Positions 27,576 to 52,365 of a stretch of 53,502 nucleotides of DNA are shown piece by piece. The translations under genes were made by a program, and so were the position numbers. The DNA lies in NCBI GenBank assembly GCA_947586205.1, contig CANPXO010000003.1, forward strand, positions 1-53,502, written 5' to 3'. The notes beneath the pieces are model-generated. The model saw only the letters and a list, made by a program, of their open reading frames with translations, made no database searches and was not told the DNA's origin. Origin of the DNA: an uncultured Bacilli bacterium. Its GTDB lineage: Bacteria; Bacillota_I; Bacilli_A; RF39; UBA660. Each line of letters opens with the position of its first letter. Position 1 is the first letter of the stretch.

Positions 27576-28178
27576 CTATAATAGCACCTCCATTAACTCT
27601 ACTACTTCATTTTCAATTCCTAATTGCTTAGAATATTTCACAAGCTTTAATAAATTCTTATTCTTATTTCTTGCATATTCCTTTAAAGCTTTAGAATAAA
27701 TTTCTTTATCCATATGATTTTTATCTTTAATGATATCACATAATGTTCTTTCTAAATCGTAGCACTGAACTGTTAAATCATTAATTGTTTTAACTTCAGT
27801 CTTACCAATATCAAAAATATTGTCATTTACATAATGAAGAGATACTGATTCGTTATGTAATAAGTTTCCACTGTAATGATAAGGAACTGTTACATCATAA
27901 ATTAATGGAATTCTGTCAGACATATTATGTAAATATAAACTTGTTGCATGAGAATAACACATTTTTTTGCTATATTTTGATAAAATGTAAAAGCTATCCA
28001 ATGGATATTTAGGCAATTTATATATACCAAATCCGACTCTTTCCAATTTTTTATCATTTACTAAGTTGCTTAAAAATTTTCTATGTACACCTAATTCTTC
28101 TGCTTCTTTGGTAGTAATATATCCATTATTTGTTTTCGAATATTCTAAAATTCTAATATAACAATTCATATCTATCAT
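27576..28178 (-). CDS. abiEi: AbiEi-family antitoxin/transcriptional regulator (type IV TA)
   Basis: 200 aa. N-terminal winged-helix segment (GYITTKEAEELGVHRKFLSNLVNDKKLERVGFGIYKL) plus a C-terminal AbiEi_4-like domain. It lies upstream of abiEii. Confidence 0.8.
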   Translation of the reverse strand: MIDMNCYIRILEYSKTNNGYITTKEAEELGVHRKFLSNLVNDKKLERVGFGIYKLPKYPLDSFYILSKYSKKMCYSHATSLYLHNMSDRIPLIYDVTVPYHYSGNLLHNESVSLHYVNDNIFDIGKTEVKTINDLTVQCYDLERTLCDIIKDKNHMDKEIYSKALKEYARNKNKNLLKLVKYSKQLGIENEVVELMEVLL

Positions 28179-29885: not shown

Positions 29886-30335
29886 TTATATTTGCTTTTT
29901 AGAAAATAACAAGTAACTTATCATTCCAAAGAAACTTCCTAAAGAATCAATAGATACATCCCAAAAATTACCGGAACGATTCACGATAAAAATTTGATGA
30001 AATTCGTCTGTGAAAGCATAAAATACACAGAATAATAGGATGAAAAAGAGTTGCTTTTTATGTATACTCCTATATTGGTTCCACAAATTCATAGTAAGAA
30101 TCCCTAGAATCGCATACTCTGTAAAATGTGCAAGTTTACGAATCATAAAAGAGACTATTTCACTGGAAAGAGGAATATGAGTGAGACTCTCTAAAAACTC
30201 TATAAGTCCACCTGATAAATGAGAACTCTCTTCCCCACTTTGAGAAGAAAAACAAAAAATAAGAAGGAGCCAAAGAAGGAAAAAACTCCAAGCAAGAATC
30301 TTTTTCTTATTCATCTGGAGTTTCCAATACTTCAT
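29886..30335 (-). CDS. VanZ family membrane protein
   Basis: 149 aa. KLAHFTEYAILG and TDEFHQIFIVNRSGNFWDVSIDSLG are VanZ-like signatures. The start may be the Met at 30314, which overlaps the LCP stop (ATGAATAA). Confidence 0.85.
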   Translation of the reverse strand: MKYWKLQMNKKKILAWSFFLLWLLLIFCFSSQSGEESSHLSGGLIEFLESLTHIPLSSEIVSFMIRKLAHFTEYAILGILTMNLWNQYRSIHKKQLFFILLFCVFYAFTDEFHQIFIVNRSGNFWDVSIDSLGSFFGMISYLLFSKKQI

Positions 30336-35280: not shown

Positions 35281-36600
35281 TCACTTTATTAAATTTTTAA
35301 TCAAGAATGTTGCATACAAAGGAATTGATTTTATTTTTGTTTCTGGATTGTATCCAAAATCTTTTAAACTAATCCGAATCATATACTTTGGATGATACAA
35401 CTCATCATAAACTTTTAAACTTTTGGATTGAGTATGTTCTTCGGCTTTTACTTCAATAGGAATAATACCATCATCTTTGGTTGTAATTAAAAAATCAACT
35501 TCAGAATCTCTATTACCTTTCCAATACAATAAATCAACACCATTTGCTTTTAATTGATTTGCCACATAATTTTCAGTAATAATTCCTTTATACATTGTCA
35601 TATCATCAAGCATAACTGTTTTAATATCATTATTCACTAATCGATTAAAAATACCAACATCTGAATAGTAAACTTTAAATACATCATTATCGACAAAGCC
35701 TAATAATGGCTTTTCTGGCAATTTCACACATTGACAAAGCTGTACCATATTACTTTCTACAAGCCAATTAAGTGGTAACGAATATTCCCTTGATTTTGCA
35801 CTAGAATCAATAACCGAATATTGAAATTTTTTAGAAGCATTTTGTAATTGAGACGATAAGGAATTATATATGTTTCTAATTTTCAATGTTTCACTAGCAT
35901 TAGCAATATGATGATTCATATCATTTTTATAATCTTCTATAATATTATTGAGTTTAGACAAATCATAATGATAGTAATCATCTCCACAATCTATCATTGT
36001 TTTTACACTTTCAGGCATTCCACCTGATAATAAATATTTTCTGTAATAATCTATTGCCTTATTATGAAGTATTCCCATAGAACTATTGTTTTTGAAACAA
36101 TCCTTTATTTTATCTAAAAGTGGTTGTTGTTCAAAAGCAATTAAAAATTCTTCAAAGTCCATAGGATACATATATAATCTAGTAACTTTTCCAACTGGAA
36201 AAGGCTTGTTTAATCTTGCTAACTTAACTCCTAATAAAGACCCAGCACCTATAATTCTCACATTACTATGTTTTTCTTGAAAAAATTTCAAATCGGATAT
36301 AAGTTCTTCACTTTCTTGAATTTCATCAATAAATAAAATACTATCTTCTTGTTCAAAATCAAAATCCAATAATGCTTTTAAATCATTATACTTTTTTTCG
36401 GATGGTTCGTCTGTGGCATACAATTTAACAACATCTACATCATATAATAAATTTATTTTTCTATAATTTTTAAATTCATTCCTACAAAACTCATCAATAA
36501 TATATGTTTTTCCACATTGTCTTACTCCCAAGATAATCAAAGGTTTAAAAGACTTAGTATTTTTCCATTCCATGAACTGCTCATAAATTTTTCTTTTCAT
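35281..36600 (-). CDS. AAA+ ATPase with C-terminal DUF4143 domain (COG1373-type), paralogue 2
   Basis: 439 aa. Walker A GVRQCGKT, Walker B LFIDEIQ, and a C-terminal EVDFL...IPIEVKA block. It is collinear with paralogue 1. Confidence 0.85.
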   Translation of the reverse strand: MKRKIYEQFMEWKNTKSFKPLIILGVRQCGKTYIIDEFCRNEFKNYRKINLLYDVDVVKLYATDEPSEKKYNDLKALLDFDFEQEDSILFIDEIQESEELISDLKFFQEKHSNVRIIGAGSLLGVKLARLNKPFPVGKVTRLYMYPMDFEEFLIAFEQQPLLDKIKDCFKNNSSMGILHNKAIDYYRKYLLSGGMPESVKTMIDCGDDYYHYDLSKLNNIIEDYKNDMNHHIANASETLKIRNIYNSLSSQLQNASKKFQYSVIDSSAKSREYSLPLNWLVESNMVQLCQCVKLPEKPLLGFVDNDVFKVYYSDVGIFNRLVNNDIKTVMLDDMTMYKGIITENYVANQLKANGVDLLYWKGNRDSEVDFLITTKDDGIIPIEVKAEEHTQSKSLKVYDELYHPKYMIRISLKDFGYNPETKIKSIPLYATFLIKNLIK

Positions 36601-36767: not shown

Positions 36768-37907
36768 TTATTTACATATCTTTAAAATTAATTGTTTGAT
36801 TCTTCCTCTTAATGTTCTTTTACGTATTTTGCTATATTTTTTAGATAATGCTGTAATACTTAATTGCTCTAGATCATCAAAAAAATCTTTTCTTGTTTCA
36901 GTTAAAACTGCTGATTTTGATAAAGAAGGATTGCCATTTAATATTTCCTCTATATTGCAATTTTGATAAATAAGAGAGCCTTTGATTTGATTAAATAAAA
37001 TATTCCCCTTTTTTGTATTAATAATAACTGCTGAAGTTCCTTTCTTATTATAAGTTTTTGGATAATAGTCTTGCACTCCCCAAAAATCTCCTAAGGTTAT
37101 ATCAGAATATTTATTACCAAATTTGAAATTACAATTATAACAACTTTCTCTTAAAGCATTGTCAGATAAAAATAATTTCATATAATCATTTTGGCTAGCA
37201 AGTTCACTAATATTGTTATTATTTTCAAATGTAATTCTATTCGAATATGTTACCCAACCAGTCTCTTTATTTCTAAAATTATAATCTTTTAATTTAGAAT
37301 TTTCTTGACTTTCTAATTCTTTAATATATTTAGAAAATAGTTTAGGACTAGGTACCCCATGACATATTAAATCTATACAATATAAATTATCATTATCATT
37401 TTTTATAAATGCTTTTAGACCTGCAACTTGACATGGAGTACCAGCAAAAAGCACTTTTTTATGTTTTATGTTTTCTTTTACATATTTAAACATATCATTT
37501 AAGTCGCTTTGTAAATATTTGCTACCTTTTAATTTGAATAAATCTTCCTTTTTTTCAATTACAATATGTTTTAATTTATTATTAACAAGTGCTGCACCTA
37601 TTACAACTCCACCACTATCTAAAATAAAATTAGCAATTGCTGAAAATATAGCTCCAGAAGATGATGATAAAATTTCTTCTATTTTTTTATTATATGCTAA
37701 ATAGCACGTATTTAATGATGCGTTTTCTCTAGTATTAATAACAGGACATATCTTTTGACATAACTTACAATTAATACATTTATTGTTATCAATGAATGGA
37801 TATTTAAAACCATCTTTGCCTTCTTTCATTACAATAGCATTTTTAGGACAAATATTCATACATGCCGTACAACCTGTACATCTATTTTTTTCTAAAACCT
37901 GTTCCAT
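36768..37907 (-). CDS. FrhB-like (coenzyme F420 hydrogenase beta-subunit family) 4Fe-4S protein
   Basis: 379 aa. It has two ferredoxin motifs, CTGCTACMNICP and CINCKLCQKICP, followed by an FrhB_C-like domain. This family commonly accompanies pyruvyl transferases in glycan loci. Confidence 0.75.
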   Translation of the reverse strand: MEQVLEKNRCTGCTACMNICPKNAIVMKEGKDGFKYPFIDNNKCINCKLCQKICPVINTRENASLNTCYLAYNKKIEEILSSSSGAIFSAIANFILDSGGVVIGAALVNNKLKHIVIEKKEDLFKLKGSKYLQSDLNDMFKYVKENIKHKKVLFAGTPCQVAGLKAFIKNDNDNLYCIDLICHGVPSPKLFSKYIKELESQENSKLKDYNFRNKETGWVTYSNRITFENNNNISELASQNDYMKLFLSDNALRESCYNCNFKFGNKYSDITLGDFWGVQDYYPKTYNKKGTSAVIINTKKGNILFNQIKGSLIYQNCNIEEILNGNPSLSKSAVLTETRKDFFDDLEQLSITALSKKYSKIRKRTLRGRIKQLILKICK

Positions 37908-37908
37908 T

Positions 37909-39153
37909 TTAGTTTAACCACCCGTCATTTGTAATTATGCCTTTTTTTATACGATAATCATGAATTTTTTTAACTATTTTTTTAGGTACTAATTTCCTTA
38001 TAAAATTTTTGAAACCATAGTACGTTGGAAAATATGAAATTATATAAGATTGAAATGGAATTTTGACATTATTTTTTTTACAAGTATCGACAACCTCTTT
38101 ATAATACTCTTTCTTATCCTTTGTCCTACTCCATTTAAGTACCTTGCCATAAATTTTTACTCTATTCTTATAAAATAATTCTAAATCAAATACACTTTTA
38201 TAAAGTTCTAATTTGCCAATAGATTCTAAATCAACCATCGTTCTTATACATTTTTCACAAAGTCCACAATTTTTTTCATCATTGCCAGCAATGCAGACGT
38301 TTAGCCAATTATACGTTTCTTTGAATTCAGATATATATTTTACTTTGCCTAACCTAGTTTCTTCCATCCCACTGCTATAAAACAGTGTATTTTGATTGCT
38401 TAAACATTCAATATTAAGAATATCATAATATGCACTATCAACAGGAGTAATACAAATATCATCAAATGAAGAACCCATACTTGAAAAGTAATATATGCCA
38501 AAAAGCTTTTGCAAAGCTAAAACACAGCTTAAAGTTCTAAATGTGTGTGTAGCAAGATGATTCATTTTTATAAATTCATTCATATTTGAATCTACAGTAA
38601 CTAATTTATAATTATTTTGTACACAAAATTTTTTGATATAATCCAATCTTTTATGAAATAAAGTACGTGCTTTTTCACCCCCATATTCTCCATGTGAACC
38701 TGCATTAAAAAAAGTTAAATGTGTTATATTATATTTTTTGTCTTTAAAATTTTTATGTTTTAGAACTGCATAAAAAGAATCGACTCCACAAGAAATACCT
38801 GTACCTACTCCATTAGGTTTAAAATCATAATCACTTATATCACACTTAATATGAATACTTCTTTTATTAAAACTCTTACAAAGCAAAGGAATTAAATAAG
38901 TAGTTAGTTGATAATATAATCTTGAACTTATGCTACCCTCTATTTCTACATCAAGCTCATGTTTGATAACATATGAAAGTAACGCGATAAGAAAAGCATC
39001 TGCGTTCTCATCACATAAATAATCTTTATACTCCTTTTCAACTTCAAACCACATATCATACGTTGTACCTTTATCATACATTAGTGTTGAAGTTAATCTA
39101 TAAGTATTTTCATGTTTTTCAATTTTTGGTCTTCCAATTACAATTTTATCCAT
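37909..39153 (-). CDS. hypothetical protein, possibly a PP-loop ATP-pyrophosphatase-like enzyme with a Cys cluster
   Basis: 414 aa. GISCGVDSFY resembles the SGGxDS PP-loop. CGLCEKCIRT resembles the QueC-type CxxCxxC zinc motif. The function is not established. Confidence 0.4.
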   Translation of the reverse strand: MDKIVIGRPKIEKHENTYRLTSTLMYDKGTTYDMWFEVEKEYKDYLCDENADAFLIALLSYVIKHELDVEIEGSISSRLYYQLTTYLIPLLCKSFNKRSIHIKCDISDYDFKPNGVGTGISCGVDSFYAVLKHKNFKDKKYNITHLTFFNAGSHGEYGGEKARTLFHKRLDYIKKFCVQNNYKLVTVDSNMNEFIKMNHLATHTFRTLSCVLALQKLFGIYYFSSMGSSFDDICITPVDSAYYDILNIECLSNQNTLFYSSGMEETRLGKVKYISEFKETYNWLNVCIAGNDEKNCGLCEKCIRTMVDLESIGKLELYKSVFDLELFYKNRVKIYGKVLKWSRTKDKKEYYKEVVDTCKKNNVKIPFQSYIISYFPTYYGFKNFIRKLVPKKIVKKIHDYRIKKGIITNDGWLN

Positions 39154-39163
39154 TCTATCACCT

Positions 39164-40408
39164 TTATATTACATATTCTCTTTCGTTAATAAATTTTGTA
39201 TTTTTTTGTTCTGTAAATCTATTATAAATTATTAAACTTTCTTCTATAAGTGTTTCTTTTTTATTCTTGTCACTTTCTTTGTTTATTAAATCATATACTG
39301 GAACAACAGTTATATAACCATCTTCACTTTCTACACTTTTCATTAGACTAAAAGTATATTTTTCTATTTGCTTCGTTTTTTTATTTATATAAGCATTTAA
39401 TATCACACTATATTCCCCTAAATTTTCTTTTCTATAATTATTTGCTCTATATGAGTTTATTACATTTCCTAATGAGTAAATAACAAGTTGATTATTTTTA
39501 AACTCTTGTCTTTGTACTACATGTGGATGATTTGAAACAATCAATGGTACTCCTGTTGTCTTAATCTTTTCAATTAACATTTTTGTGAAAGAACCTGGTT
39601 CTTCATTAAATTGTCCTCCACTGTGTAACATAAATATTGTAATATTGCTATTATTAATTGCTTCTCTAATTTTCTGAATGCTATCATTTAATAATGTCTC
39701 ATCAATAACCCATTCTCCAGTGTTAATTTTATCAATAACTTTCATATTTTCTTCTAAATTGTATGGTTTAGCCTTATAATTAATAATTTTTTTTATAAAA
39801 TACTTGATATTTCTGATAATAAATTTTCCAAATAAATCTTTATAAAAATTTATTTTATGAAAGTGCCAAGTTTGATCAGAGTCTTGTTTTTTGATTAAAT
39901 TGATTTTTGGCAAATCTTTTTCTTTTATTTTATAATAATTATAACTATAATTTGTACCATAAGTATATGCAAGAAAAGCAATTTTCACACCATCTATTTC
40001 AATTATTTTATAATCTTTTTCTTCATTATTTAACTTTGTACCAAGGTATTCCATATCATATTTTTTTATATTTTTGATTGTTTGCTTTAATCCAAGTATT
40101 CCTCTATCTAGGCAGTGATTATTTGCTGTCGTAAGTAATTTGAAGTTAGAATTTTTAAGAGCTTCCAAAAAACTTTTAGGAGTATTAAATGAATACCAAT
40201 CAATTGTGTAACCTCCAAATATTGGATTACATATTGGAGTTTCTAAGTTGCCAACAACATAATCAGAATGTTTCAAATATTCTTTTAAATAAATAAACGT
40301 GTCATTAAAATTATATTGATTTTTTCTCTTTTTTACCGCATAAAAATACTCTAATTGACAAATCAAGTCACCTGTAAAGCTAATTTTTATCATGTTCTTT
40401 TCTTTCAT
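39164..40408 (-). CDS. CapA-family (PGA_cap metallophosphatase-fold) protein
   Basis: 414 aa. Contains FTGDL, GNLETP, TANNHCLDRG and SNHPHV motifs. Confidence 0.8.
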   Translation of the reverse strand: MKEKNMIKISFTGDLICQLEYFYAVKKRKNQYNFNDTFIYLKEYLKHSDYVVGNLETPICNPIFGGYTIDWYSFNTPKSFLEALKNSNFKLLTTANNHCLDRGILGLKQTIKNIKKYDMEYLGTKLNNEEKDYKIIEIDGVKIAFLAYTYGTNYSYNYYKIKEKDLPKINLIKKQDSDQTWHFHKINFYKDLFGKFIIRNIKYFIKKIINYKAKPYNLEENMKVIDKINTGEWVIDETLLNDSIQKIREAINNSNITIFMLHSGGQFNEEPGSFTKMLIEKIKTTGVPLIVSNHPHVVQRQEFKNNQLVIYSLGNVINSYRANNYRKENLGEYSVILNAYINKKTKQIEKYTFSLMKSVESEDGYITVVPVYDLINKESDKNKKETLIEESLIIYNRFTEQKNTKFINEREYVI

Positions 40409-41931
40409 AATTTCCTCCTCTTGATTTTTCTTTTTAATTCTTTTAAAAGTCCTTTTTCGTACTCAGTCAGATACAACTTAGAAAGTATTATGTAAATAAT
40501 AGTATATATTAAAATCCATATAGCTAAACTTATCCAAGAAACAATTTTAAAATTAAATATATTTATAATTAGAATAAATGCTATAGTTTCGACTATTAAT
40601 GTAATCACAATATTAAAAATACTTTTAAAAAATTTTAAAATATCCAAATGTAACGATTTGTAATAATAAATGTTTTTAATAATTATATTTCCAATAAGTA
40701 ATGACAATGCTGTTCCAAGAGCAGCTCCAAATCCACTATACATTTTTATTAAAGGAATACTAACAATAATATTTAATATTGATGTAAAAATAAGCACTAT
40801 TGGCATAAATTGATGTTTATTCTTAACCTGTGCAATACTTACTACTGAATTTTGTGTAAGCGATACTATCATAGGAATCATTAAAGCAAGTCCAATATAA
40901 TAAGCATCTTTATATTCCGGTCCTACCCAAAGAATAATAAATTCTTTACCGAAAACGATAAATCCAGTTAATATCAGTCCTACTATTATTAATTGAATTC
41001 TCCCCGTTTTAATTAAAACATTAGTAAATTCCTCATCGCTAGCTCCATCTTCATTCATTTTTGTCATTTTAGGAAGTAAAACATTGCTTATGGAAGTAGA
41101 AAATGAAACATAAACTTGATTTATATGTGAAGCAATCGCGTATATTGAAACAGCTGCTGCCCCACTCAAACTTCCAATTAGAAAATTATCTATACTCCAA
41201 TTTACTTTATCAATGATGGAATTTAAGAATATCCAAAATGAAAAGGCAAATATAGACAATAATAATTTAAAATCAATTTTACCAAAAGTAATTTTTGTTT
41301 TAATATTAAACTTACAATATAAAGCATTAAATAATAAACTTAAAATATTTAAAATTGTAATTACTATGGCTAATGCAATAGACTTATAACCTAATGAAAG
41401 TAAAATGAGCATTATTATTGGTTGCAGAATTACAGTAATAATATTTACTATTTTTGCAAATATAAACTTTTCATAAGCAACAACTATGGAAGAAAATACA
41501 CTAAGTGGAAATGTGATAGCTAAATTAAATGTTAAAATTAACATTAATTTTTTTGCAATTACCAGTTCATTAAATGTCATAGTTGCCCCAAATAAATTGT
41601 CAACATTTAAGAAAATAATAAATCCAATTAGTCCTGCAATTAATCCAATAATAGAATATACTACTATAAACATACCATATAATTTATGTTCTTTTTCTAT
41701 TTCATTTTTTGCTCGATATCGATTAGAATAAACAACTAAAGCACTTGCAAAGCCAAAATCTAAAATAGTTAAAGTAGATATAATAGAAGCCACCATTGAA
41801 TATAAACCATATTCAGCTTGCCCTAAGCTATTAGTTAAAATAGGTGTATAAAATAATGTTATAGCAAGGTTTAATAAAATAACAACGTAAGATAGCAAAG
41901 CTCCTATTTTCCTCTGCTTACTAGCTTCCAT
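40405..41931 (-). CDS. wzx: Wzx-type oligosaccharide flippase (MOP superfamily)
   Basis: 508 aa with about 14 TM helices and a polysaccharide biosynthesis protein N-terminus (ALLSYVVILLN..LGQAEYGLYS). Confidence 0.85.
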   Translation of the reverse strand: MEASKQRKIGALLSYVVILLNLAITLFYTPILTNSLGQAEYGLYSMVASIISTLTILDFGFASALVVYSNRYRAKNEIEKEHKLYGMFIVVYSIIGLIAGLIGFIIFLNVDNLFGATMTFNELVIAKKLMLILTFNLAITFPLSVFSSIVVAYEKFIFAKIVNIITVILQPIIMLILLSLGYKSIALAIVITILNILSLLFNALYCKFNIKTKITFGKIDFKLLLSIFAFSFWIFLNSIIDKVNWSIDNFLIGSLSGAAAVSIYAIASHINQVYVSFSTSISNVLLPKMTKMNEDGASDEEFTNVLIKTGRIQLIIVGLILTGFIVFGKEFIILWVGPEYKDAYYIGLALMIPMIVSLTQNSVVSIAQVKNKHQFMPIVLIFTSILNIIVSIPLIKMYSGFGAALGTALSLLIGNIIIKNIYYYKSLHLDILKFFKSIFNIVITLIVETIAFILIINIFNFKIVSWISLAIWILIYTIIYIILSKLYLTEYEKGLLKELKRKIKRRKL

Positions 41932-41945
41932 ACATTTACTCCTCT

Positions 41946-43073
41946 CTATTTTAAAGCATTTTCTAAATAATTTTTTGATTCATTTATAAACACTTGTAAT
42001 TTTTTATTTATTTTTTTATAATTCCAACTTATCTTAGATAATTTTTCATAATTTGGAACTAACATGTACTTATCACTTTCATCAATAGTATTCAAAAAAT
42101 CTATTAATCGATTATTTATGTTTTCCTTATAATCTCTTTTTAAAGCAATGAAATTTTTTTCAAATATGCATGAAAATATAATACCATGAAAACTATCGGT
42201 AAATATATATTCGGCATTTTTTATTAAATAAAGCCATTCCTCTGGAGAACAATTATCAAGTCTATAATTGCCAAAAGTTTCATCTACTACATTATAATTA
42301 CCATCTGCATGTGGAATAGTAACTATTTTTAATTGTAATTGATTAGCTACTTTTTGAATTTCTGACCTCTGATTTTCATCTTTTCCAAGCATGTACACAA
42401 ATATAAATTTATCTTTTATATTTATTTTTTTAGAAATATTTGTCCACTCATCTTTAGAAATAAGTAAAGTCGGATCACACACATGGTATACGTTCTCTAT
42501 TTTTAAATCATTGAGCATTTTTACTGAAGATTTTTCTCTTACTGATATATTATTAAATTTTTTTAATGCTTTTATAATATATTTTTTATTTTCTTTTGGA
42601 ATATAATCCCTACCAAATGAAGCAGCATAAGAAATTCTTTTAAAATTCTTTTTATTTTTAAAATCTAAGAACTTTATTTTATTTACTCCTCTATTAAATT
42701 GGGCCCACACAACATCGCTACCAACAATAAACACATCATAATCGGTATTTTGTATTAAATTATAATTTAATAGTTCTGGACATAACTTTGTATTCTTATG
42801 TGTAAATTCATTTGAGTTTTCAATACGTTTAGAAAAATCGTATGGACTAAAATTATTTGCTGATGAAATTTTAAATTTTTTGAAAAAATTTAAAAAAGTT
42901 TGATAAGTAATTTTTGTTCTTTTTTGTTTACATCCGTTACTAAAAACTAATGATTCAGTTATATAGTTTTTATAATGGTTATTCAAATAATGATTAAGAG
43001 CAAATGATTGTAATCTGTTCCCGTAATTAAAATTATTCATGGCTAATTCTGATATTATTGCAATTTTTTTCAT
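41946..43073 (-). CDS. polysaccharide pyruvyl transferase family protein
   Basis: VGSDVVW and SFHGIIFS blocks. The start is set at MKKIAIIS (43073), which is preceded by GAAAGGAAAA. The tracked ORF extends to 43094. Confidence 0.8.
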   Translation of the reverse strand: MKKIAIISELAMNNFNYGNRLQSFALNHYLNNHYKNYITESLVFSNGCKQKRTKITYQTFLNFFKKFKISSANNFSPYDFSKRIENSNEFTHKNTKLCPELLNYNLIQNTDYDVFIVGSDVVWAQFNRGVNKIKFLDFKNKKNFKRISYAASFGRDYIPKENKKYIIKALKKFNNISVREKSSVKMLNDLKIENVYHVCDPTLLISKDEWTNISKKINIKDKFIFVYMLGKDENQRSEIQKVANQLQLKIVTIPHADGNYNVVDETFGNYRLDNCSPEEWLYLIKNAEYIFTDSFHGIIFSCIFEKNFIALKRDYKENINNRLIDFLNTIDESDKYMLVPNYEKLSKISWNYKKINKKLQVFINESKNYLENALK

Positions 43074-43077
43074 GTTA

Positions 43078-43833
43078 TCATTTTCCTTTCTCAAACTTTT
43101 TATGAATTTTATGTTTTAAATCTCTAATTTTATAATAATTATCAATGCCTACAATATTGCTTATAAATCGTTTTATTTTATATTTGACCTTCATCTTAGG
43201 GCTTTCCCACGATGCATTGTAATGATGAATTGTATAAGTTTTTTCACTAACAATACAGTGTTGCGTAAAAACATCAAAACCGCCTATATATTCTTTACTA
43301 TATATTGGAAGCAAATCTATTTTTTGACCACTTTTAATTTCGTATCCCATGTTAATTAACGCATTACTATTTCGCTCTGTGCAAGGAGTTAAGTCCATTG
43401 TACCATCTTTTTTTATAAAATTCAAATTATCATAATCATCTAACAATATTTTAACTATTTTATTTTTAGGCTTTGCTGCAAAGCCTAATCCAGTATTAAT
43501 TATACTGGGTCTTTCCTCCCCTAAAAAGCCAGCTTTTAATAATCCCTCATCAAATGTTTTTAGTACTTCTACATCTGTATCAAAATAAATTCCGCCATGC
43601 TCATAAATCACTTTAAGACGAGCAACATCGCTTACGAAAGCATATTTTTTACATTGATATGCTTCTTTAACATAGTTATTATAGTTGATATCGAAATTGT
43701 CTTCATTCCATTCTATAATTTCATAATCTGGGAAAAAATTTTTCCAAGACTCCAAGCATTTATAAAACAATTTATTTTTTTTACCTCTTCCAAACCAGCA
43801 ATAATGTATTTTTTTTGGTATCATAATATTCAC
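43078..43833 (-). CDS. GT32-like glycosyltransferase (Gly_transf_sug / capsule synthesis type)
   Basis: 251 aa. Contains IPKKIHYCWFG, FVSDVARLKVIYEHGGIYFDTDVEV and a DxD motif. Confidence 0.8.
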   Translation of the reverse strand: MNIMIPKKIHYCWFGRGKKNKLFYKCLESWKNFFPDYEIIEWNEDNFDINYNNYVKEAYQCKKYAFVSDVARLKVIYEHGGIYFDTDVEVLKTFDEGLLKAGFLGEERPSIINTGLGFAAKPKNKIVKILLDDYDNLNFIKKDGTMDLTPCTERNSNALINMGYEIKSGQKIDLLPIYSKEYIGGFDVFTQHCIVSEKTYTIHHYNASWESPKMKVKYKIKRFISNIVGIDNYYKIRDLKHKIHKKFEKGK

Positions 43834-43846
43834 ATCCTATCTTTTA

Positions 43847-44983
43847 TTAATATAAAAATGTAATTATATCTGAATGATACGGAAAAGTCTCACACCATTG
43901 ACTTACAGGAAATTTCCAAATCCAATAAACCAACATTATTAAAACAAAACCCATTGATACAAATTTTCTTATATTATACTTATTTCCAAATGCTTTATTT
44001 ACATTAGGTATCAAATAAAATGCTGCTGGATAAAAGAAATATAAACCAATTCTACTAATATTAACTATTTTATAACTTAATAAAAATACCGAAAAATCTA
44101 CTGCTAAAAATGACATTACTAATAAGATGTTAATTTTTGATTCTTTTTTATTAATAAAATTTGCATAAAAGAACCCGGAAAATAGCAAAATTATTCTTAA
44201 TAAAAGTTCTGATCCCATCGAAACTTTCTCTTCTTGAATATATGTCTTAACATAATAGTAATATCTATCAGGTAAAACATGAGCAATTCGCGTCAAAAAA
44301 TAAACGATTTCTTCAAAAAACACTATAGAACATGCTAATCCTAATAAGAAAACAAAACAAAGAATTAACTTTTTATTTTTGGACATCCTAATATTTGAAA
44401 AAATTAGCAATCCATAAATTAATATTGATACAATTGCTGCACTATGAAAACTAACGGCAATCAAAAAAGTTAAAAGTGTTCTCCAATATTTTTTTTCTTG
44501 AAAAAGAGTGATTGAAAAAAGAATCAAAGCCATTGAAATACTTTGACGCATAAAAGTAAAAGACACGCAATACCAAAGTAACATATAAATTATCATAGTA
44601 AATGTCATATTAATTTTGTCACGACTTTTATATGCAAATAAATATACAAACAATATTGTAACAAATTGAATGAAAAACAACGATACATTTGGAAAAGAAG
44701 AAAAGCGGGTTATTAAATAAATAAAAAGTTTATATCCAACTTCAAAATTAATCGTTTTCATATACATATTAAAGCTTAACGATTTAGCAGCATTTACGGT
44801 TGGTACTACATACATAACAGTATCTCTACCTACGTTATATGCTCTAAATCCTGCTATTAAGGAAGGTATTAAAATAGCAATAAAGCTATAAAATATTCCT
44901 AATTTTTTATTTTTCTTTTCAAATTGTTTTTCTGCCAAATATGTGAATAATGGTGTAAATATAAAGCAAATAAAGTATATCAT
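43847..44983 (-). CDS. EpsG-family membrane protein (putative Wzy-type polymerase)
   Basis: 378 aa with more than 10 TM helices and an N-terminal RAYNVGRDTVMY motif typical of EpsG. Confidence 0.75.
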   Translation of the reverse strand: MIYFICFIFTPLFTYLAEKQFEKKNKKLGIFYSFIAILIPSLIAGFRAYNVGRDTVMYVVPTVNAAKSLSFNMYMKTINFEVGYKLFIYLITRFSSFPNVSLFFIQFVTILFVYLFAYKSRDKINMTFTMIIYMLLWYCVSFTFMRQSISMALILFSITLFQEKKYWRTLLTFLIAVSFHSAAIVSILIYGLLIFSNIRMSKNKKLILCFVFLLGLACSIVFFEEIVYFLTRIAHVLPDRYYYYVKTYIQEEKVSMGSELLLRIILLFSGFFYANFINKKESKINILLVMSFLAVDFSVFLLSYKIVNISRIGLYFFYPAAFYLIPNVNKAFGNKYNIRKFVSMGFVLIMLVYWIWKFPVSQWCETFPYHSDIITFLY

Positions 44984-44984
44984 T

Positions 44985-46106
44985 TTATTTTTTTCGCTCT
45001 CCTTCTAAGTACATTTTTTCTATCTTATTTATTTCAGTATGCAAGTCATAACCTGCTTTAATAAGTACATTTTTCATATTTTGTCTTGTGTAATTACTTT
45101 CTATTATATTATTAATTTTATCTTTCCACACATCTAAATTATTTAAATTAATAAATTCTACATTACCACTAATATCACATTTAAAATCTATATTTTTCGA
45201 AAATAGGCATTTCAATCCACTAGCCTGAGCCTCTATTCCAACGACAGGTAAGCCTTCAAATAAAGATGGTAATATAAATAAATCCATAGCTTGGTAATAT
45301 TCATTAGCCTCTAATGTTAAGCCTAAAAATAACACACGATTACGTAATCCTAAGCATTCCACATATTCTTTTATTTGTTGTTCTAATTCTCCAGTTCCTA
45401 AAAGGATTAACATCACATTGTCATTTTCTGCAGCTACTTTCGAAAAAATATCTATTAGTCCCTTATGATTTTTTTGATTTGCAAACCTTCCAATATGTCC
45501 TATTACAAACATATCATCATGAATTTTTAATTTATTTCGAACCTTGTTTCTAATAGTATTGTTAAATAAAAATTTATCAGTATCTATAAAATTATTACAT
45601 AATATAATATTACTTGTCTTGAAAGCATTTTTTCCAAACATCCATTGTGCAGCTTTTTCTGAACAGGCAATTTTCACATTGGCTATTTTATTGACTAATG
45701 GTCTAAATAAATAATGTGTTATTTTTTTGTCGCTGTTCCCATTATGACTGTGAATAAAAATTCTAGTTTTTTTTGAATAAAATTTAATTATTAAAGCATA
45801 AACTCCAACAACTGAAGTACAATAATTAAAATGAACTACATCATATTGATTTTTTTGACTTAATCGTTTTAAATATAAAAAAAACTTTATTGGATGTCTT
45901 TTTATACTAACCATTTTGTACATTTTATTATAATACCCACGAATTTTGTCGCCATTACTTCCATAAATATTTTCTTTTACTAGTAGATCTATATCAAATT
46001 TTTCATGATTAATATTTTGCAGAATATTAATTAGGTAATTTTCTATACCTCCTATATAAGGAGTCATTCCAAATATTAATATTTTTTCTTTTTTCAAGTT
46101 ACTCAC
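44985..46106 (-). CDS. GT4-family glycosyltransferase
   Basis: 373 aa. The C-terminal PSLFEGLPVVGIEAQASGL matches the EX7E motif. Confidence 0.9.
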   Translation of the reverse strand: MSNLKKEKILIFGMTPYIGGIENYLINILQNINHEKFDIDLLVKENIYGSNGDKIRGYYNKMYKMVSIKRHPIKFFLYLKRLSQKNQYDVVHFNYCTSVVGVYALIIKFYSKKTRIFIHSHNGNSDKKITHYLFRPLVNKIANVKIACSEKAAQWMFGKNAFKTSNIILCNNFIDTDKFLFNNTIRNKVRNKLKIHDDMFVIGHIGRFANQKNHKGLIDIFSKVAAENDNVMLILLGTGELEQQIKEYVECLGLRNRVLFLGLTLEANEYYQAMDLFILPSLFEGLPVVGIEAQASGLKCLFSKNIDFKCDISGNVEFINLNNLDVWKDKINNIIESNYTRQNMKNVLIKAGYDLHTEINKIEKMYLEGERKK

Positions 46107-46139
46107 TTCCTTATCATTTTTATAGAATTAAAAATTCAA

Positions 46140-47167
46140 TTAGGTTCTTTTAGTTATTTTTTTATACAATGTCCAACTTGCTGCAAATGGTGCAAATCCA
46201 AATTTTAGTGCAATAAGTGCGATTCTATCTCTTTTAGGAATTCTTTTATCTTTTAAAACTTCTTTAGAGTGACTCTTAACATAACTTATACATATTTTCA
46301 ATTCTTCTCTTGGCTTATTTTTTACATTGGCCATCTGAGACAAAGTGCTCAAATAAGCAAACATTTCTCTTCTATTACACGCTTTTTCTAAATTAGGATA
46401 CTCATATCTTATATAATCACACATATCTTTAGTAGATTTAATTAAATCCATTTTTCCAGAATCAAAAGGCTTTGTGGTTATTGAATCTACTTTAATAATA
46501 TAATTATATAAAATAATATTTGTAATAGCAATCTTTTTTGAATTTAACACCAATTTATATATTGTTGCAACATCTTCGTAAAGCCTATCTTTAGGAAATT
46601 CTATATTTTTAAAAAGTTCTTTTTTAAATAACTTGTTCCAAGCACTAAATTCAATTTGCTCATCATATAGCATCCGTTCTAAAACCTCTAAATTATTTAA
46701 TGTCATATTACAGTCCACATTTTTTTTAAGTATAGTTTCTTTTTTACATCCTACCCCCCCCCCCCTATTAAACTAGAATTATAAATTACATTATGTCCTG
46801 CAATTGATATATCCGCATTATTATTAATTAAATTATTATAATGTGTTTCTATATAGTTAAGTTCAATATAATCATCCGAATCAACAAAAGTTATAAATTG
46901 ACCTGATGCAGCGATTAACCCACGATTTCTAGCATCTGATAGTCCACCATTATCTTTGTGTACAACAATAATTCTTTTATCGGTTTTTGAATAATCATCA
47001 CATATTTTTCCACAGTTATCAGGAGAACCATCATCTACTAATATAATTTCAATGTTTTTATAGGTTTGGTTTATTATACTATTTATACATTTTTTAATAT
47101 ACATTTCCACTTTATACACAGGAACAATTATAGAAATAAGTGGTGCAACAATATGCTTCTGTTTCAT
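46140..47167 (-). pseudogene. GT2-family glycosyltransferase split by a G12 tract (frame-shifted, phase-OFF allele)
   Basis: The N-terminal ORF 46751..47167 (ISIIVPVYKVE..VDDGSPD..DSDDY) ends in GGGG*. The C-terminal ORF 46140..46718 continues the GT2 fold in another frame. G13 or G10 fuses them. Confidence 0.8.
46754..46765 (-). repeat. homopolymeric tract, C12 on the plus strand (G12 in the coding sense)
   Basis: Counted directly: ...cta cccccccccccc tatta. This is the longest G/C run in an AT-rich window. Confidence 0.95.
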
Positions 47168-47227
47168 TATCTTACCTCTTTTCTTTTGATGATATTATAT
47201 CATTTATAGTCTATTTTAAGAAAAACG

Positions 47228-49147
47228 TTATTTTTTTTCATAGATAGCTTTTAAAAACTTGTAGTATGGAAACTTTAACTTAAATACTGATTTCATAAAC
47301 ATAATTTTACAATCTGAGTTTTTTAAATCTACATAAAATATTTTTGGATGTAATACATAATAGAACAAAGATTTATTATGAATCAATTTATATTTTCCAG
47401 CATTAAGAAATTCGATATTTTTAAACAATTTTACATTTTTTAAAGTCGGTTTTTGAATAAAATTTTTATAATTTTGAAAGGCAATATTACAATCTTCAAG
47501 AAATAAAAATTCACTTGTAAAAGCATCGTCAACAAATAGTTTTGCTGCACTTTGCAGTTTTTGAATTGTTAAAATATTTTTTTCACTATAGTCCACTTCT
47601 GCACATACAGGAACAATTTTATGATTTACTTCTTTATATCCTAATGTTGAACCTTCAGTGGCCAAAAACAACATTTCAAATAGTCCTAAACTAACCTGTA
47701 TTGTTCTCTGATTATCTAAATCCAATTGTGACGAAAATAAATAGCCAGATCGATTAAGTGTATCGTAATTTTTATATCTATTATCGTTATTAACACCATA
47801 ATAATAGCCAAAAATTTTAGTGCTTGTATCACAAAACTTTTGCAAATAATATTGAATAGTACCATTCCAACCAATATCAATTAATGCTATATTTCCTGTA
47901 AAATTAACTTGCTGTAGATATTTTTTTAAATAATTATTTTGTAATTTACAATTTTCATATAAATCATCTTTTATAATATTAAATAAATTATTTTGTTGAG
48001 TTTTTGATAAGTTCATAATTAAAACATTATCAAAAATGCTATATTTTTCTAATTCTTTTTTATAACTTTCATATTTTAAATTCACAGATGAAAATAAGTC
48101 TTTTACATTTGAAGTGTTTTTTAGCATCATTTGAAATTTTTCTAGCAGTTCATCTAAAGTTCTAATATTAACTATATTGGCCATAAGAACCGATTTACGT
48201 GAAACTTTTAAATAAAATATTGGAAGTTCTTCTTGGTATTGTTTTTTATAAACATCCATTATAATTTTCGCATCTCTAGCTAAAAAGAAAATCTTTTGAA
48301 TTTTATTTTCAATAACTTGAGTATGAACCCATCGGACAAAACTTAAAAGTATAGGTCCAAACACTTCATAGCCAAATTTTTCATAAACATCCATTTTATA
48401 TTGACAAATATGATTATTTATAAAAGATGATAGTACATTGTAATTTAAATCGACCGAGTTATATAATTCAAATAAAGTGTTACATGTATATCTATCAACC
48501 AAAATAGAATTCATTCCTATTTTTTTAGGAGGTAAAAAATCAGTCATAAATGTATCACCTAAATGTAAAATTGTTTCATAAGATAAATTATTTTCTTTTG
48601 CCACTAATTCAAAAAGTTTACCACTTCTTTTGGTCATCATTTTATCAGACGATAAATAAATTCCATGATTTACACTATAACCATTTTTTTCTAATATTTG
48701 TTTTAGTAGATTTATTGGTAAATACATGTCAGAAACAAAAAATATTTTCTTTTTTTGCTGTACACATTTTTTATAAAATAAATAAATTGGATAATTTATG
48801 CATGTAATATTAAGTTCTACTTTACATTCTAATTCCATTAACTTTTGATTATTTTTATAATCTAAATAATGATAAATTTCATCTAAAGTTAACTCTTCAT
48901 TTTTACTATTATTTCGTGCTCGTCTTTCAGCATTTATTCTTTTTTCTTTAAAATCATAAATTTGTTCAGAAAATAAACAATTATACTCTTTTTGAACTAA
49001 GTCGTAAACATCAGTTACGTTCTTTACATCTCTTTTTATCAATGTATCATATACATCAAAAAAAATTACATCAAAATTATCTAAATCGATTTTTTCACAA
49101 TCATCAGAAAATAATTTATAGAAAATTTTTTTAAAAACTTTTGTCAT
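47228..49147 (-). CDS. large hypothetical protein with an N-terminal HAD-like domain
   Basis: 639 aa. VIFFDVYDTLIKRD is a DxxDT-type nucleophile motif, and HLGDTFMTD is a late acidic motif. The C-terminal ~380 aa are unassigned. Confidence 0.5.
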   Translation of the reverse strand: MTKVFKKIFYKLFSDDCEKIDLDNFDVIFFDVYDTLIKRDVKNVTDVYDLVQKEYNCLFSEQIYDFKEKRINAERRARNNSKNEELTLDEIYHYLDYKNNQKLMELECKVELNITCINYPIYLFYKKCVQQKKKIFFVSDMYLPINLLKQILEKNGYSVNHGIYLSSDKMMTKRSGKLFELVAKENNLSYETILHLGDTFMTDFLPPKKIGMNSILVDRYTCNTLFELYNSVDLNYNVLSSFINNHICQYKMDVYEKFGYEVFGPILLSFVRWVHTQVIENKIQKIFFLARDAKIIMDVYKKQYQEELPIFYLKVSRKSVLMANIVNIRTLDELLEKFQMMLKNTSNVKDLFSSVNLKYESYKKELEKYSIFDNVLIMNLSKTQQNNLFNIIKDDLYENCKLQNNYLKKYLQQVNFTGNIALIDIGWNGTIQYYLQKFCDTSTKIFGYYYGVNNDNRYKNYDTLNRSGYLFSSQLDLDNQRTIQVSLGLFEMLFLATEGSTLGYKEVNHKIVPVCAEVDYSEKNILTIQKLQSAAKLFVDDAFTSEFLFLEDCNIAFQNYKNFIQKPTLKNVKLFKNIEFLNAGKYKLIHNKSLFYYVLHPKIFYVDLKNSDCKIMFMKSVFKLKFPYYKFLKAIYEKK

Positions 49148-49919
49148 ATTTTTTACCTAAAAACTTTGCTTTTAAAAAACTAGTCCCTTTCTTCCACCAA
49201 TTAATGCTTTGCATATCCATAAATCTTACCTCTTTATAAGTTATATTATTTGTATTTAAATATACATCTAAAAGTAATTCAGAAATTCTTCCAAAAAATC
49301 TTGCATGAAATGCATCATACTTATTATAATCTATCTTTTTCTCTAATTCAAATAAAATATCAAATAACCATGTACAATAACCATCTAATATGTCTTTCTT
49401 CATAATAAACATATTAAACATATGCGCACTAGTTCTTTTCTTTAATCTGTCAAATTCATATAAGTACTCAGGATATTTTTCTTCTATAATATTTCTAATT
49501 TTATCTAAAGGTTCAATATACATTGTATGTTTGTAATGATCATACAAATTTTCTATATAATACTTTCTTATTTTAGGTACAATAACATCTGTACTCACTA
49601 ATAATTGATTTGCTTCCTCAAATGTTAAAACATGTTTAAATTTTTCATCTTCTGTTTTATATTTCTTTTTACTTAGTGTAAAATACCTTCTATAATGACA
49701 TAATCCTATATAATTTACATCTAAATTTTTCCAAGCCCAATAAAGCCCTGTTAATTCACAAAAATAAGGATTTTTTTTAGAGATATTTTCCCCATCATTA
49801 TCTTTTTGATAGCCTAAATCCTCTTTACCTTCTGCACCTACGTGCAATGGTAAATATAATTTATCACTAGGCATCTGATATTTTTTATGTGTTGCTATAA
49901 CCACTTTGATATTTTTCAT
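49131..49919 (-). CDS. DUF4422 domain protein (glycan-locus glycosyltransferase-like)
   Basis: 262 aa. Family-typical blocks are IATHKKYQMPSDKLYLPLHVGAEGK and NPYFCELTGLYWAWKN. Confidence 0.8.
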   Translation of the reverse strand: MKNIKVVIATHKKYQMPSDKLYLPLHVGAEGKEDLGYQKDNDGENISKKNPYFCELTGLYWAWKNLDVNYIGLCHYRRYFTLSKKKYKTEDEKFKHVLTFEEANQLLVSTDVIVPKIRKYYIENLYDHYKHTMYIEPLDKIRNIIEEKYPEYLYEFDRLKKRTSAHMFNMFIMKKDILDGYCTWLFDILFELEKKIDYNKYDAFHARFFGRISELLLDVYLNTNNITYKEVRFMDMQSINWWKKGTSFLKAKFLGKKYDKSF

Positions 49920-49926
49920 ACTTCAC

Positions 49927-50931
49927 CTACTCAATTGTTAAATTTTGATTATTGGATTGAAGTTGAATAAAAGTATTTCCATCACTTAATTTTACTTCAT
50001 TTCCATCTAAATAAGTATATATTGTTTTATCTGTTCTACTCTGTTTGCTCCACTTAATTGGTACAGCATAACCATTCGTAATGAAATAGCCATTTCCACT
50101 TCCTACTGTCTCTAAATCCCAATAGTAATTATCACTAGCCATTTTTGTATTTATCTTTTGAACAATAATATTTTTTGTTGTAAATTGTTGTTTCGTTTCA
50201 TGATCAATATTCGCATCTCCATTTACAAATCTTTTGTAAACTTTATTTGCTTCATCATATTCATAAGTAGTATTTAAAGATGCATTCGATGGAATATAAA
50301 CTTTATTTGCTATTTGACTTTGTTCTTTTTCACTTAAGTTTACATCTTTTGGTTCATAATTGAAAACTAAACCTTTCTCTGTTGTACTTGCAAAACTACG
50401 ATCTGTAGCAAATTCTCTAATATTACCAATACTTGTATATGCTGTATGCTCACTTGCTAAATTCTCAGGATTATTTCTCCAGAAAGGTCTACCATGCACA
50501 ACACCATTTACATAGTTAATACCAGTAGATTTCATATCATCTTGAGCATAATGACTCCAACCATAACAAACGAATATAGCATCTTGTTCAAAAGCATAAT
50601 CTAAGAAATTATGTCTTGCACTTCTAATCGTTCCAATCATTAAATCATTAATATCTTTATAAAAAGCAAGAAGTCTTGTAATTCCCCCTTCTACAGGAAT
50701 TTCATACACCATATAAGCTTGTTGCATACCAGTTTGTACTTTTACAGCTGCTGGAGAATTATTAATGACGACTGCATAAGGTCTTGTTTTAGAGTTTACA
50801 TCAATAATGTCAACTGTTTCTACAACAGGAATTTCTTCTTTATTCTCACGTTCTTCTATTACTGGTTCCTCTTTTTTTCCACATCCTACACATAAAAAAG
50901 ATACTAGAAAAACAACAAATAACTTTTTCAT
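49927..50931 (-). CDS. DUF3048 (YerB-like) lipoprotein
   Basis: 334 aa. Lipobox LCVGC, then RPYAVVINNSPAA and VEGGITRLLAFY blocks. Confidence 0.85.
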   Translation of the reverse strand: MKKLFVVFLVSFLCVGCGKKEEPVIEERENKEEIPVVETVDIIDVNSKTRPYAVVINNSPAAVKVQTGMQQAYMVYEIPVEGGITRLLAFYKDINDLMIGTIRSARHNFLDYAFEQDAIFVCYGWSHYAQDDMKSTGINYVNGVVHGRPFWRNNPENLASEHTAYTSIGNIREFATDRSFASTTEKGLVFNYEPKDVNLSEKEQSQIANKVYIPSNASLNTTYEYDEANKVYKRFVNGDANIDHETKQQFTTKNIIVQKINTKMASDNYYWDLETVGSGNGYFITNGYAVPIKWSKQSRTDKTIYTYLDGNEVKLSDGNTFIQLQSNNQNLTIE

Positions 50932-51602
50932 TACTTCGCACCATCCTTCTTTATTACAGCAAATATTGTATCAAAAATTATTTGTAAATCTAGTAAAAAC
51001 CCACAATGGTCAACATAATAAAGTTCCATCTTTATTCTTTCATCATAAGAAATATTGCTTCTTCCATTACTTGCCCAATAACCAGTAAGTCCTGGTCTTA
51101 CACTTAAAAATTTATCTTTATTCTTTTTATATTTTTTTACTTCATCAGGCACTACTGGTCTTGGTCCAATTAAAGACATATCTCCAACAAAAATATTAAT
51201 AAATTGAGGAAATTCGTCTAAAGAAGTTTTCCTTAAAAAATTTCCAATTTTTGTAATCCTTGGATCATTCTCTATTTTTCTATCTCTTAGGTATTCTGCC
51301 CTTTTTTCAGGATTATGATTCAACCAATTTTTCAATATTTCATCCGCATTAGGAACCATAGTTCTTAATTTAAAAATTCTTATTTCCTTTCCATGTTTTC
51401 CCAATCTTGTTTGTCGATAAAAAATAGAATTAAAATCACCTGTACAAATATAAGCAATTTTAACCCCTATAACAATAGGAACTAAAGCAATTAGACCAAT
51501 AATACTGCATAATATATCAAAAATTCTTTTACAGCCAAAATAGAAACATCTTTTTCTATGATGAACATAATCTGTAGTCATAACTAATTCTTCACTTTCC
51601 AT
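50931..51602 (-). CDS. undecaprenyl-phosphate sugar phosphotransferase (small 'bacterial sugar transferase', priming enzyme)
   Basis: Contains KRIFDILCSIIGLI, YRQTRLGKHGKEIRIFKLRTM and DEFPQFINIFVGDMSLIGPRP. The start is set at MESEE (51602), preceded by GGGGTGA. The tracked ORF extends to 51638. Confidence 0.9.
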   Translation of the reverse strand: MESEELVMTTDYVHHRKRCFYFGCKRIFDILCSIIGLIALVPIVIGVKIAYICTGDFNSIFYRQTRLGKHGKEIRIFKLRTMVPNADEILKNWLNHNPEKRAEYLRDRKIENDPRITKIGNFLRKTSLDEFPQFINIFVGDMSLIGPRPVVPDEVKKYKKNKDKFLSVRPGLTGYWASNGRSNISYDERIKMELYYVDHCGFLLDLQIIFDTIFAVIKKDGAK

Positions 51603-51716
51603 ATAAATATTCACCCCATAGCTTAGGTCTGTTAACATTTTAGCATTTAATCAAATTGAGTTCAACCCCAAATTTTACAATTTACTGTATATATACACAT
51701 ATTTTAAATCATAGTA

Positions 51717-51742: not shown

Positions 51743-51768
51743 ACTTACGCTTGCAAATGAAATAAATT

Positions 51769-51796
51769 TTTACCTCAATTCGCCTAAAGTGTTGCT
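51769..51796. repeat. left arm of the 28-bp perfect inverted repeat
   Basis: TTTACCTCAATTCGCCTAAAGTGTTGCT. Confidence 0.9.
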
Positions 51797-52087
51797 CGAA
51801 TAATAAAAAGTACACAAAAAAGGATTATATTGAAGTGTATATTATATTCTCTTTTTTGTACATGAATTTTTTCCTTTTTTGTACATTCTTATAGTATCAT
51901 TCAAACTCCACTCGTTATTTACAACATCATAGAATTTTGTAAAATAAAGAGCAATCTTAAAGTATACAATTGAATATTTAGAGAAAAATTAATACCAATC
52001 TTAAAATAATGATGTTATATACAATACCGATTTGCCTATAGATTTGGAAGATATAAGAAATAATTCAATCATAATTTTTAAATATAC

Positions 52088-52115
52088 AGCAACACTTTAG
52101 GCGAATTGAGGTAAA
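52088..52115. repeat. right arm of the 28-bp perfect inverted repeat
   Basis: AGCAACACTTTAGGCGAATTGAGGTAAA is the exact reverse complement of 51769-51796. Confidence 0.9.
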
Positions 52116-52119
52116 TTTT

Positions 52120-52365
52120 TTAAATATTTGGTGTATTCTTACCTTTAAAAAGAATAGATTGTGTAATAATCATCTTATCATCAGGACTTAATCTTTCAGA
52201 TATAGCACTATATATTTCTGGTAAATCTTGAGTACTAAATACTTGATATGTATTATCAAATAATTTTGTATTGTATTGAAATGATTCTACATAATCAATT
52301 GCATCTTTTTTACAGTTGCAATCATTATTGTCTGAAAAATTAAAGGTAATAATATAACTATTCAA
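52120..52365 (-). CDS. hypothetical small protein (81 aa)
   Basis: The ORF's stop lies 4 nt from the right IR arm. No family is recognised. Confidence 0.45.
   Translation of the reverse strand: MNSYIITFNFSDNNDCNCKKDAIDYVESFQYNTKLFDNTYQVFSTQDLPEIYSAISERLSPDDKMIITQSILFKGKNTPNI

Follow-up and report, generated by a model that had tools for sequence, protein, structure and literature searches.

A poly-G tract dividing a GT2 glycosyltransferase gene in an uncultured Bacilli bacterium, a probable slipped-strand contingency locus

The DNA analysed here (contig CANPXO010000003.1 of an uncultured Bacilli bacterium; 53,502 nucleotides (nt), 28.8% GC; hereafter the window) carries a GT2 glycosyltransferase gene, within a surface-polysaccharide operon, that is divided into two open reading frames (ORFs) at a run of 12 G. 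The complete gene occupies 46140..47167 on the minus strand and is in frame with tracts of G10, G13 and G16, but out of frame as sequenced. The N-terminal ORF (46751..47167, minus strand) encodes 138 amino acids (aa), matches PF00535 and ends at a TAG directly after the tract. It represents the nucleotide-sugar binding half of the enzyme. The C-terminal ORF (46140..46718, minus strand) encodes 192 aa if read from a GTG; gene callers place the start at the ATG at 46706, which gives 188 aa (P0001). It aligns to residues ~150-324 of single-chain homologues and makes up the acceptor side of the GT-A domain begun by the N-terminal ORF, followed by a helical C-terminal region.

In the strand reading and the homopolymer scan, window positions 46754-46765 are C12 on the plus strand, which is G12 (GGG glycine codons) on the coding minus strand. 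A preliminary description of this DNA had read the tract in the same way, and the upstream ORF also contains the motifs that it listed (VPVYKVE, VDDGSPD and DSDDY) and the end that it gave (LIGGGG-TAG; here 138 aa, ...NSSLIGGGG). The G12 run is the only G/C run of 7 nt or more in the window, and the next longest is 6 nt. From the base composition of the window, 4.6e-5 C12/G12 runs are expected, in agreement with the earlier statement that such a run is improbable by chance. GGG is a rare codon in the window ORFs, accounting for 11.6% of glycine codons.

When the tract length is varied in silico, G10 yields a protein of 341 aa, G13 one of 342 aa and G16 one of 343 aa, all in frame. The G10 and G13 forms read GGG(G)VGCKKETILKKNVDCNMTLNNLEVL... 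and continue into the 192-aa downstream ORF. With G8, G9, G11, G12, G14 or G15, a stop follows 0-3 codons past the tract and the products are 137-141 aa long. The stops for both of these out-of-frame (OFF) readings lie in TAGGATGTAA, directly 3' of the tract (46744..46753, minus strand). For a tract of n G's, the stop is TAG when n=0 mod 3 and TAA when n=2 mod 3. The preliminary description had stated that the sequenced allele is OFF and that G13 or G10, but not G11, restores the frame, and the frame analysis agrees with it on both points. Its fused length of ~345 aa is corrected to 342 aa (G13); the homologues are ~324 aa.

The two ORFs are the halves of a single GT2 gene with a single fold. 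The N-terminal ORF scores 123.6 bits against Pfam Glycos_transf_2 (PF00535; cut-off 23.3) over profile positions 1-118 of 168. In the same profile scan, the C-terminal ORF alone has no Pfam match. Thousands of single-chain GT2 proteins of ~324 aa cover 96-100% of the fused protein, the best of them at 57-59% identity. An alignment of 16 sequences contains 76 invariant columns, all of which are kept by the fused protein. The DXD motif in the N-terminal half (D96-S97-D98-D99) is invariant across 16/16 aligned sequences. More than 40 invariant positions fall in the C-terminal half, among them E198-D199, for which a catalytic role is suggested; the acidic catalytic residue would then lie in the second half of the enzyme. 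No second stop or frameshift is present in either half in this alignment.

Protein Data Bank entry 5hea (CgT/GalT1) aligns by sequence across the junction (residues 9-231). The AlphaFold2 model of the G13 form is one GT-A domain with a mean predicted local distance difference test score (pLDDT) of 89.5 and a predicted template modelling score (pTM) of 0.88. In Foldseek, this model matches 5hea with a target-normalised TM-score (TMt) of 0.84 and 34% identity over 294 columns that span the junction, and it matches TarS, TarP and RmlT over ~350 columns at ~20% identity. Because the break lies inside one GT-A domain, the truncated 138-aa product lacks half of the catalytic domain and, judged from homology, has probably lost its function. 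The N-terminal ORF has a Shine-Dalgarno (SD) pairing energy of -7.2 kcal/mol, and most other genes of the operon have energies of about -6 to -12 kcal/mol. The exception is a 639-aa gene (-3.8 kcal/mol), whose start overlaps the preceding gene. The candidate starts of the C-terminal ORF have no SD (+2.0 and -3.0 kcal/mol), so separate translation of this half is unlikely.

The tract lies within a 12-residue, lineage-specific insertion (LIGGGGVGCKKE in the G13 form; 46737..46771, minus strand) that appears as a 12-column gap in 15/15 aligned homologues. In the model, the insertion forms a disordered hairpin loop that connects strands 120-129 and 145-149. In the G13 model, pLDDT is below 50 solely at residues 1-4 and 133-141. 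Judging from this model, 3, 4 or 5 glycines should be tolerated in the loop. Among 80 homologous loci from GTDB genomes, none has a G/C run of 8 nt or more in the GT2 gene. Since the homologues have neither the insertion nor the tract, and the loop is permissive, the tract is regarded as a lineage-specific acquisition.

Exact-protein look-ups of flanking genes retrieved contigs of the same strain from four other ENA metagenome assemblies and four Logan assemblies. These are short-read assemblies with contig coverages, taken from the record names, of 5.3-7.8x. Together with the window (G12, the reference allele), three contigs span the complete tract: L084 (ERZ27249236; 9,137 nt compared) has G12, L001 (ERZ27249433; 14,797 nt compared) has G15, and L002 (ERZ27249426; 11,434 nt compared) has G7 and also lacks the preceding A (6-nt gap). 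In BLAST comparisons of 9-15 kb each, the three contigs have 0 substitutions relative to the window. The only differences are two indels, and both are at the tract. The same 14.8 kb contains 43 A/T runs of 7 nt or more (11 of them of 8 nt), none of which varies. The differences of +3 and -6 nt exceed ordinary homopolymer error. The comparison of tract length between related genomes, which had been suggested as a check, therefore gives variable lengths (G12/G12/G15/G7) in four same-strain assemblies.

In four further assemblies, contigs (L003, L094, L095, L086, L087 and L093) are interrupted precisely at the tract. L003 runs through 13 G before it ends, and L094 and L095 through 3 G. L086 starts 3 G ahead of the TAG, and L087 starts at the TAG. 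L093 (ERZ27060014 NODE_6800, SPAdes) is identical to window positions 51819-46765 and exits the tract after the first G. Past the tract it has a 33-nt tail, AAGATTTTTATCTTAAATTTAAAGATGGAAAAG (L093 5055-5088), which is in frame as ...SSLIEDFYLKFKDGK and has no match in the window, the fetched loci or the JGI metagenomes. Either a chimera or an alternative allele could account for this tail. A tract that is both the sole polymorphism and a systematic break point shows the pattern expected of a hypermutable repeat with mixed lengths. The between-sample evidence of localised variability is unusually clean, and it comes without any in-frame (ON) allele.

The locus is probably a slipped-strand contingency locus, and we assign a probability of roughly 0.6 to the reading in which the tract is a slipped-strand contingency switch and the sequenced alleles are OFF. 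Such loci are recognised by a homopolymer whose length varies and governs the product of a gene. The tract is an intragenic homopolymer longer than the ~8 nt taken as a minimum and well above the composition expectation. Its length toggles, in silico, between a full-length and a truncated GT2 product. It is also polymorphic among near-identical assemblies, in data that are short reads of low coverage.

Under a contingency switch, slipped-strand mispairing in replication would lead to the gain or loss of G's. With G10, G13 or G16, the complete enzyme of 341-343 aa would be made, its flexible surface loop carrying 3-5 glycines, and other lengths would give a stop 0-3 codons past the tract and a fragment of 136-141 aa. 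The OFF fragment would keep the UDP-sugar/DXD half and would lack the acceptor half with the conserved E198-D199. The downstream half, which has no ribosome-binding site, would not be made separately. The population would comprise cells with and without the sugar-transfer step, and the glycan would be altered or absent. ON alleles would be expected to occur, and switching would be reversible, frequent and of consequence for the phenotype. The host is an uncultured, low-GC, spore-forming gut Firmicute, and the gene lies in its Wzx/Wzy-type surface-polysaccharide operon.

Several observations weigh against this reading. The four complete alleles are all OFF and are all in the same frame; an in-frame tract is found in 0/4, in a sample that is small and non-independent. 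This shared frame is the only observation left unpredicted by a simple ON/OFF model. The accession numbers of the samples are adjacent and the strain is identical, so the samples are not independent draws. The coverage is 5-8x and G tracts are a known source of Illumina misreads, which makes the absolute lengths uncertain. The absence of the preceding A in the G7 allele (L002) is not explained by pure slippage, and in L093 the tract gives way to 33 nt of unrelated sequence.

The protein searches also weigh against it. In searches of 5.8 billion clusters with the fused protein and with the N-terminal half plus the L093 tail, followed by inspection of the cluster members, no close orthologue is found. 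The 15-billion-sequence collection contains no ON protein (341-343 aa). The cluster of the N-terminal half holds OFF forms alone (136, 138 and 139 aa). The next relative is at most 71% identical (N-terminal half) or 59% identical (full length). In the scan of GTDB genomes, the best match has 54% identity and comes from a rabbit-gut 'Bacilli bacterium' metagenome-assembled genome (MAG); the species with the gene is not represented there. When JGI metagenomes are scanned at the DNA level for the two flanks of the tract, separated by a gap of variable length, no match is obtained.

It is unlikely that the length differences are technical, with a real tract of uniform true length, possibly in frame, and with differences and breaks that stem from Illumina error or low coverage. 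This explanation would fit the coverage of just 5.3-7.8x, the contig breaks at the tract in four assemblies, the loss of the flanking A in the L002 allele and the chimeric-looking L093 tail. A G10 run at an apparent misjoin in an unrelated assembly (L097) is also consistent with it. For the G11-12 tracts of Bifidobacterium breve, Illumina 'G's end' reads are known, and the tract length in the database does not reflect the mixture actually present in the population (PMC9187656). Against it, the lengths shift by +3 and -6 nt and not by the usual +/-1, the 43 A/T homopolymers of the same DNA are invariant, and none of the four complete assemblies (0/4) has an in-frame length. All four reach the correct downstream flank. 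A read-end poly-G artefact is rejected, as both flanks are correct in the four assemblies and at least 8 assemblies have the tract in one and the same position. The tract variation is probably biological rather than technical.

A dead gene is likewise unlikely. The GT2 gene would then be a pseudogene fixed in the OFF state, with a tract that drifts neutrally in length and no functional switching. The lack of an ON allele among the four alleles and in the protein collection agrees with this, as does the single OFF frame common to all alleles, and truncated GT2 fragments are common among homologues of other MAGs. However, the C-terminal half retains every family-invariant residue without a second lesion, and the preservation of these residues in an untranslated half is evidence against long-standing pseudogenisation. 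The model fold is confident. The sole lesion is at an easily reverting site, and the tract lies in a tolerant loop and not in the protein core.

Improbable, too, is recoding, in which RNA polymerase slippage or ribosomal +1/-2 frameshifting would supply a steady, low level of full-length enzyme and the DNA length would tune expression. Long homopolymers are RNA polymerase slippage sites, established mainly for A/T runs. The four alleles share a frame (n=0 mod 3) despite their different lengths, which would fit selection for a recoding-competent frame. The same frame in four non-independent samples is weak evidence, however (~1 in 27 if they were independent), and no stimulatory structure or SD-like element is there to indicate recoding. 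Documented poly-G systems work at the DNA level (PMC9187656, PMC3068675).

Two stable, separately translated genes whose products assemble as a split enzyme are very improbable and are rejected on fold and SD evidence: both ORFs are intact and are annotated separately by gene callers in every assembly, but the break falls within a single GT-A domain, the C-terminal ORF starts without an SD, the close homologues are all single-chain and the spacer is a hypervariable homopolymer.

The operon that contains the proposed contingency switch comprises 13 genes (36768..51638, minus strand) and is assigned to the Wzx/Wzy type from Pfam and NCBIfam scans. In order, the genes encode a Bac_transf priming transferase, a DUF3048 protein, a DUF4422 protein, the 639-aa protein, the split GT2, a GT4, an EpsG-type polymerase, a GT32/Caps_synth protein, a pyruvyl transferase, a Wzx flippase, a PGA_cap protein, a 414-aa protein and an FrhB-like Fe-S protein. 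The Pfam scores are 202.9 bits for Bac_transf, 67.9 bits for Polysacc_synt and 121.8 bits for EpsG. The priming phosphoglycosyl transferase, flippase and polymerase that characterise Wzx/Wzy systems are therefore present in one operon. No CpsBCD-like chain-length regulator/tyrosine-kinase module is found among the scanned operon and neighbouring ORFs, which are part of the window; such a module may be elsewhere in the genome or absent. For this reason the locus is named 'Wzx/Wzy-type' and not a Cps-type capsule locus. The 639-aa protein (47228-49147, minus strand), immediately upstream of the GT2 gene, and the 414-aa protein (37909-39153) have no Pfam match.

Downstream of the operon there are two LCP ligase genes (33786-35240 and 30307-31770). 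Interspersed with them are genes for an AbiEi/AbiEii type IV toxin-antitoxin system, a Fic-domain gene and two AAA_14/DUF4143 ATPases (26733-28178, 25788-26543, 28246-29544 and 35281-36600), which give this region a variable, island-like look. The remainder of the window is chromosomal housekeeping (PriA, Fmt, PASTA kinase, RsmH, MraY and a SpoVD equivalog). For PriA, the closest named relatives come from a 'Bacilli bacterium' MAG (64%) and from Candidatus Ventrenecus (63%).

Upstream of the operon there is an inverted repeat with an operon-proximal arm at 51764..51812 and a distal arm at 52072..52120, a candidate inverton. The arms are 49 nt long and 82% complementary, with a perfect 25-nt core (ACCTCAATTCGCCTAAAGTGTTGCT) and 259 nt between them. 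The best sigma-70-like site within the segment (51918-51945, plus strand) is directed away from the operon; the scan gives no more sites here than in shuffled sequence, so this indication is weak. Contig L093 starts 7 nt inside the segment, beside an arm. A search for other contigs spanning the repeat in the opposite orientation yields no flipped copy of the segment, and no recombinase gene is found near the repeat. The preliminary description had proposed an inverton as a second switch at this locus; the inverted repeat is real, and the inverton itself is a candidate. A doubtful extension of the contingency reading is that two stochastic switches, an upstream promoter inverton and the poly-G tract, are stacked in this uncultured Bacillota lineage. 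Each clone could then have several glycan states (none, complete or one sugar short), and the shared OFF frame might reflect selection for a frame competent for recoding by transcriptional or ribosomal slippage.

Poly-G runs were also met at other glycosyltransferase loci. In contig L081 (Muribaculaceae MAG CAZQOT010000060.1), G11 at 2329-2339 parts a 292-aa ORF, which ends …RLSGGGVHNGA before its stop, from a 42-aa continuation (MVHDYNNSAYGGCKKAVQKF…). The split pair resembles a TylF-type methyltransferase. The tract is ~1.3 kb from a GT2 homologue, and it is another candidate for a poly-G switch in a glycan locus of a gut bacterium. In contig L097 (ERZ1667816 scaffold_2943), G10 at ~474-483 closes a truncated GT2 N-terminal half (P0177). 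The DNA past this run is an opposite-strand response regulator, which points to a misjoin or rearrangement, and the contig serves as a warning on poly-G in short-read assemblies. In contig L096 (ERZ1667847 k87_2829677), the GT2 homologue P0205 is frameshifted at ~3396-3406 at an impure run, GGGGAGGGGGG, in roughly the same loop, and its C-terminal half (…YYEDTVTIYK…) resumes in another frame. A conserved poly-G hot spot in the homologues, as the truncated P0177 (…RGGG…) and P0205 (…WGGG…) might suggest, is rejected, since L097 is a misjoin or rearrangement and the L096 run is impure.

Phase variation of glycosyltransferases by simple sequence repeats (SSRs) is textbook knowledge in Campylobacter, Neisseria, Haemophilus and Helicobacter. 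To our knowledge, this type of variation is hardly documented in Clostridia-like or Bacilli-like gut commensals. If the contingency reading is true, uncultured low-GC Firmicutes would also vary their surface glycans by localised hypermutation, a point that would bear on the pressure exerted by phages and the immune system in the gut. In metagenomes, such loci would stand out as the single polymorphic site among contigs that are otherwise identical and as a systematic contig break point, and 'split' glycosyltransferase annotations in MAGs may conceal functional genes. The locus would extend a known principle to a new host. Its practical value is modest, and it offers a concrete locus for public reads.

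Among known systems, the inverted repeat resembles the invertons of Bacteroides capsule loci and Clostridioides difficile in that it bounds a short segment just ahead of the operon. Invertible promoters are documented phase variation in Clostridia and Bacteroides (PMC11868660). Unlike those invertons, the repeat described here is an element that neighbours the tract, with no flipped copy and no nearby recombinase found. The GT2 enzyme shares the GT-A fold and the DXD motif with CgT/GalT1 (5hea), TarS, TarP and RmlT, and its presumed catalytic acid falls in the second half of the domain, as in RmlT (D198A entry). These enzymes have neither the glycine-loop insertion nor a homopolymer.

The siaD gene of Neisseria meningitidis is a poly-C capsule switch. 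In siaD and in Neisseria pgtA, a poly-G pilin galactosyltransferase gene (PMC2193922), a homopolymeric G/C tract lies in a glycosyltransferase or capsule-synthesis gene, as it does here, and glycan loss is reversible in those systems. Unlike the present host, the Neisseria species are proteobacterial pathogens with an experimental phenotype, and the enzymes are unrelated.

Poly-G glycosyltransferase and glycan genes are also known in Campylobacter (PMC3068675, PMC7142995, PMC3025981). The C. jejuni genes Cj1295, wlaN and cgtB contain, like the present gene, a G run (~8-13 nt) within the coding sequence, and the bacterium is again an AT-rich (~30% GC) gut inhabitant. In both cases the target is a glycan-modifying enzyme or glycosyltransferase in a surface-glycan locus (capsule, lipooligosaccharide or flagellar glycan in C. 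jejuni), with frameshift as the ON/OFF device, here a proposed one. The tract length varies between isolates in C. jejuni and between assemblies here. Unlike C. jejuni, a member of the Campylobacterota, the present host is a Gram-positive-type spore-former. It has one known tract, from a 53.5-kb window, and its alleles are all OFF.

In B. breve, tracts of G11-12 split pilin genes (PMC9187656). The B. breve UCC2003 pairs (bbr_0113a/b and bbr_1889a/b) resemble the present gene in that a G11-12 run splits a surface-structure gene of a Gram-positive-type gut commensal into two annotated ORFs, the second of which has no translation start of its own. The B. breve genes encode pilins in a high-GC actinobacterium, whereas the gene described here encodes a polysaccharide GT2 in a 29% GC genome. 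Slippage in B. breve was measured by maximum-depth sequencing, and the evidence here is from comparisons between assemblies alone. More generally, homopolymeric tracts have been proposed by Orsi and co-workers to serve as regulatory devices in prokaryotes at large (PMC2831843).

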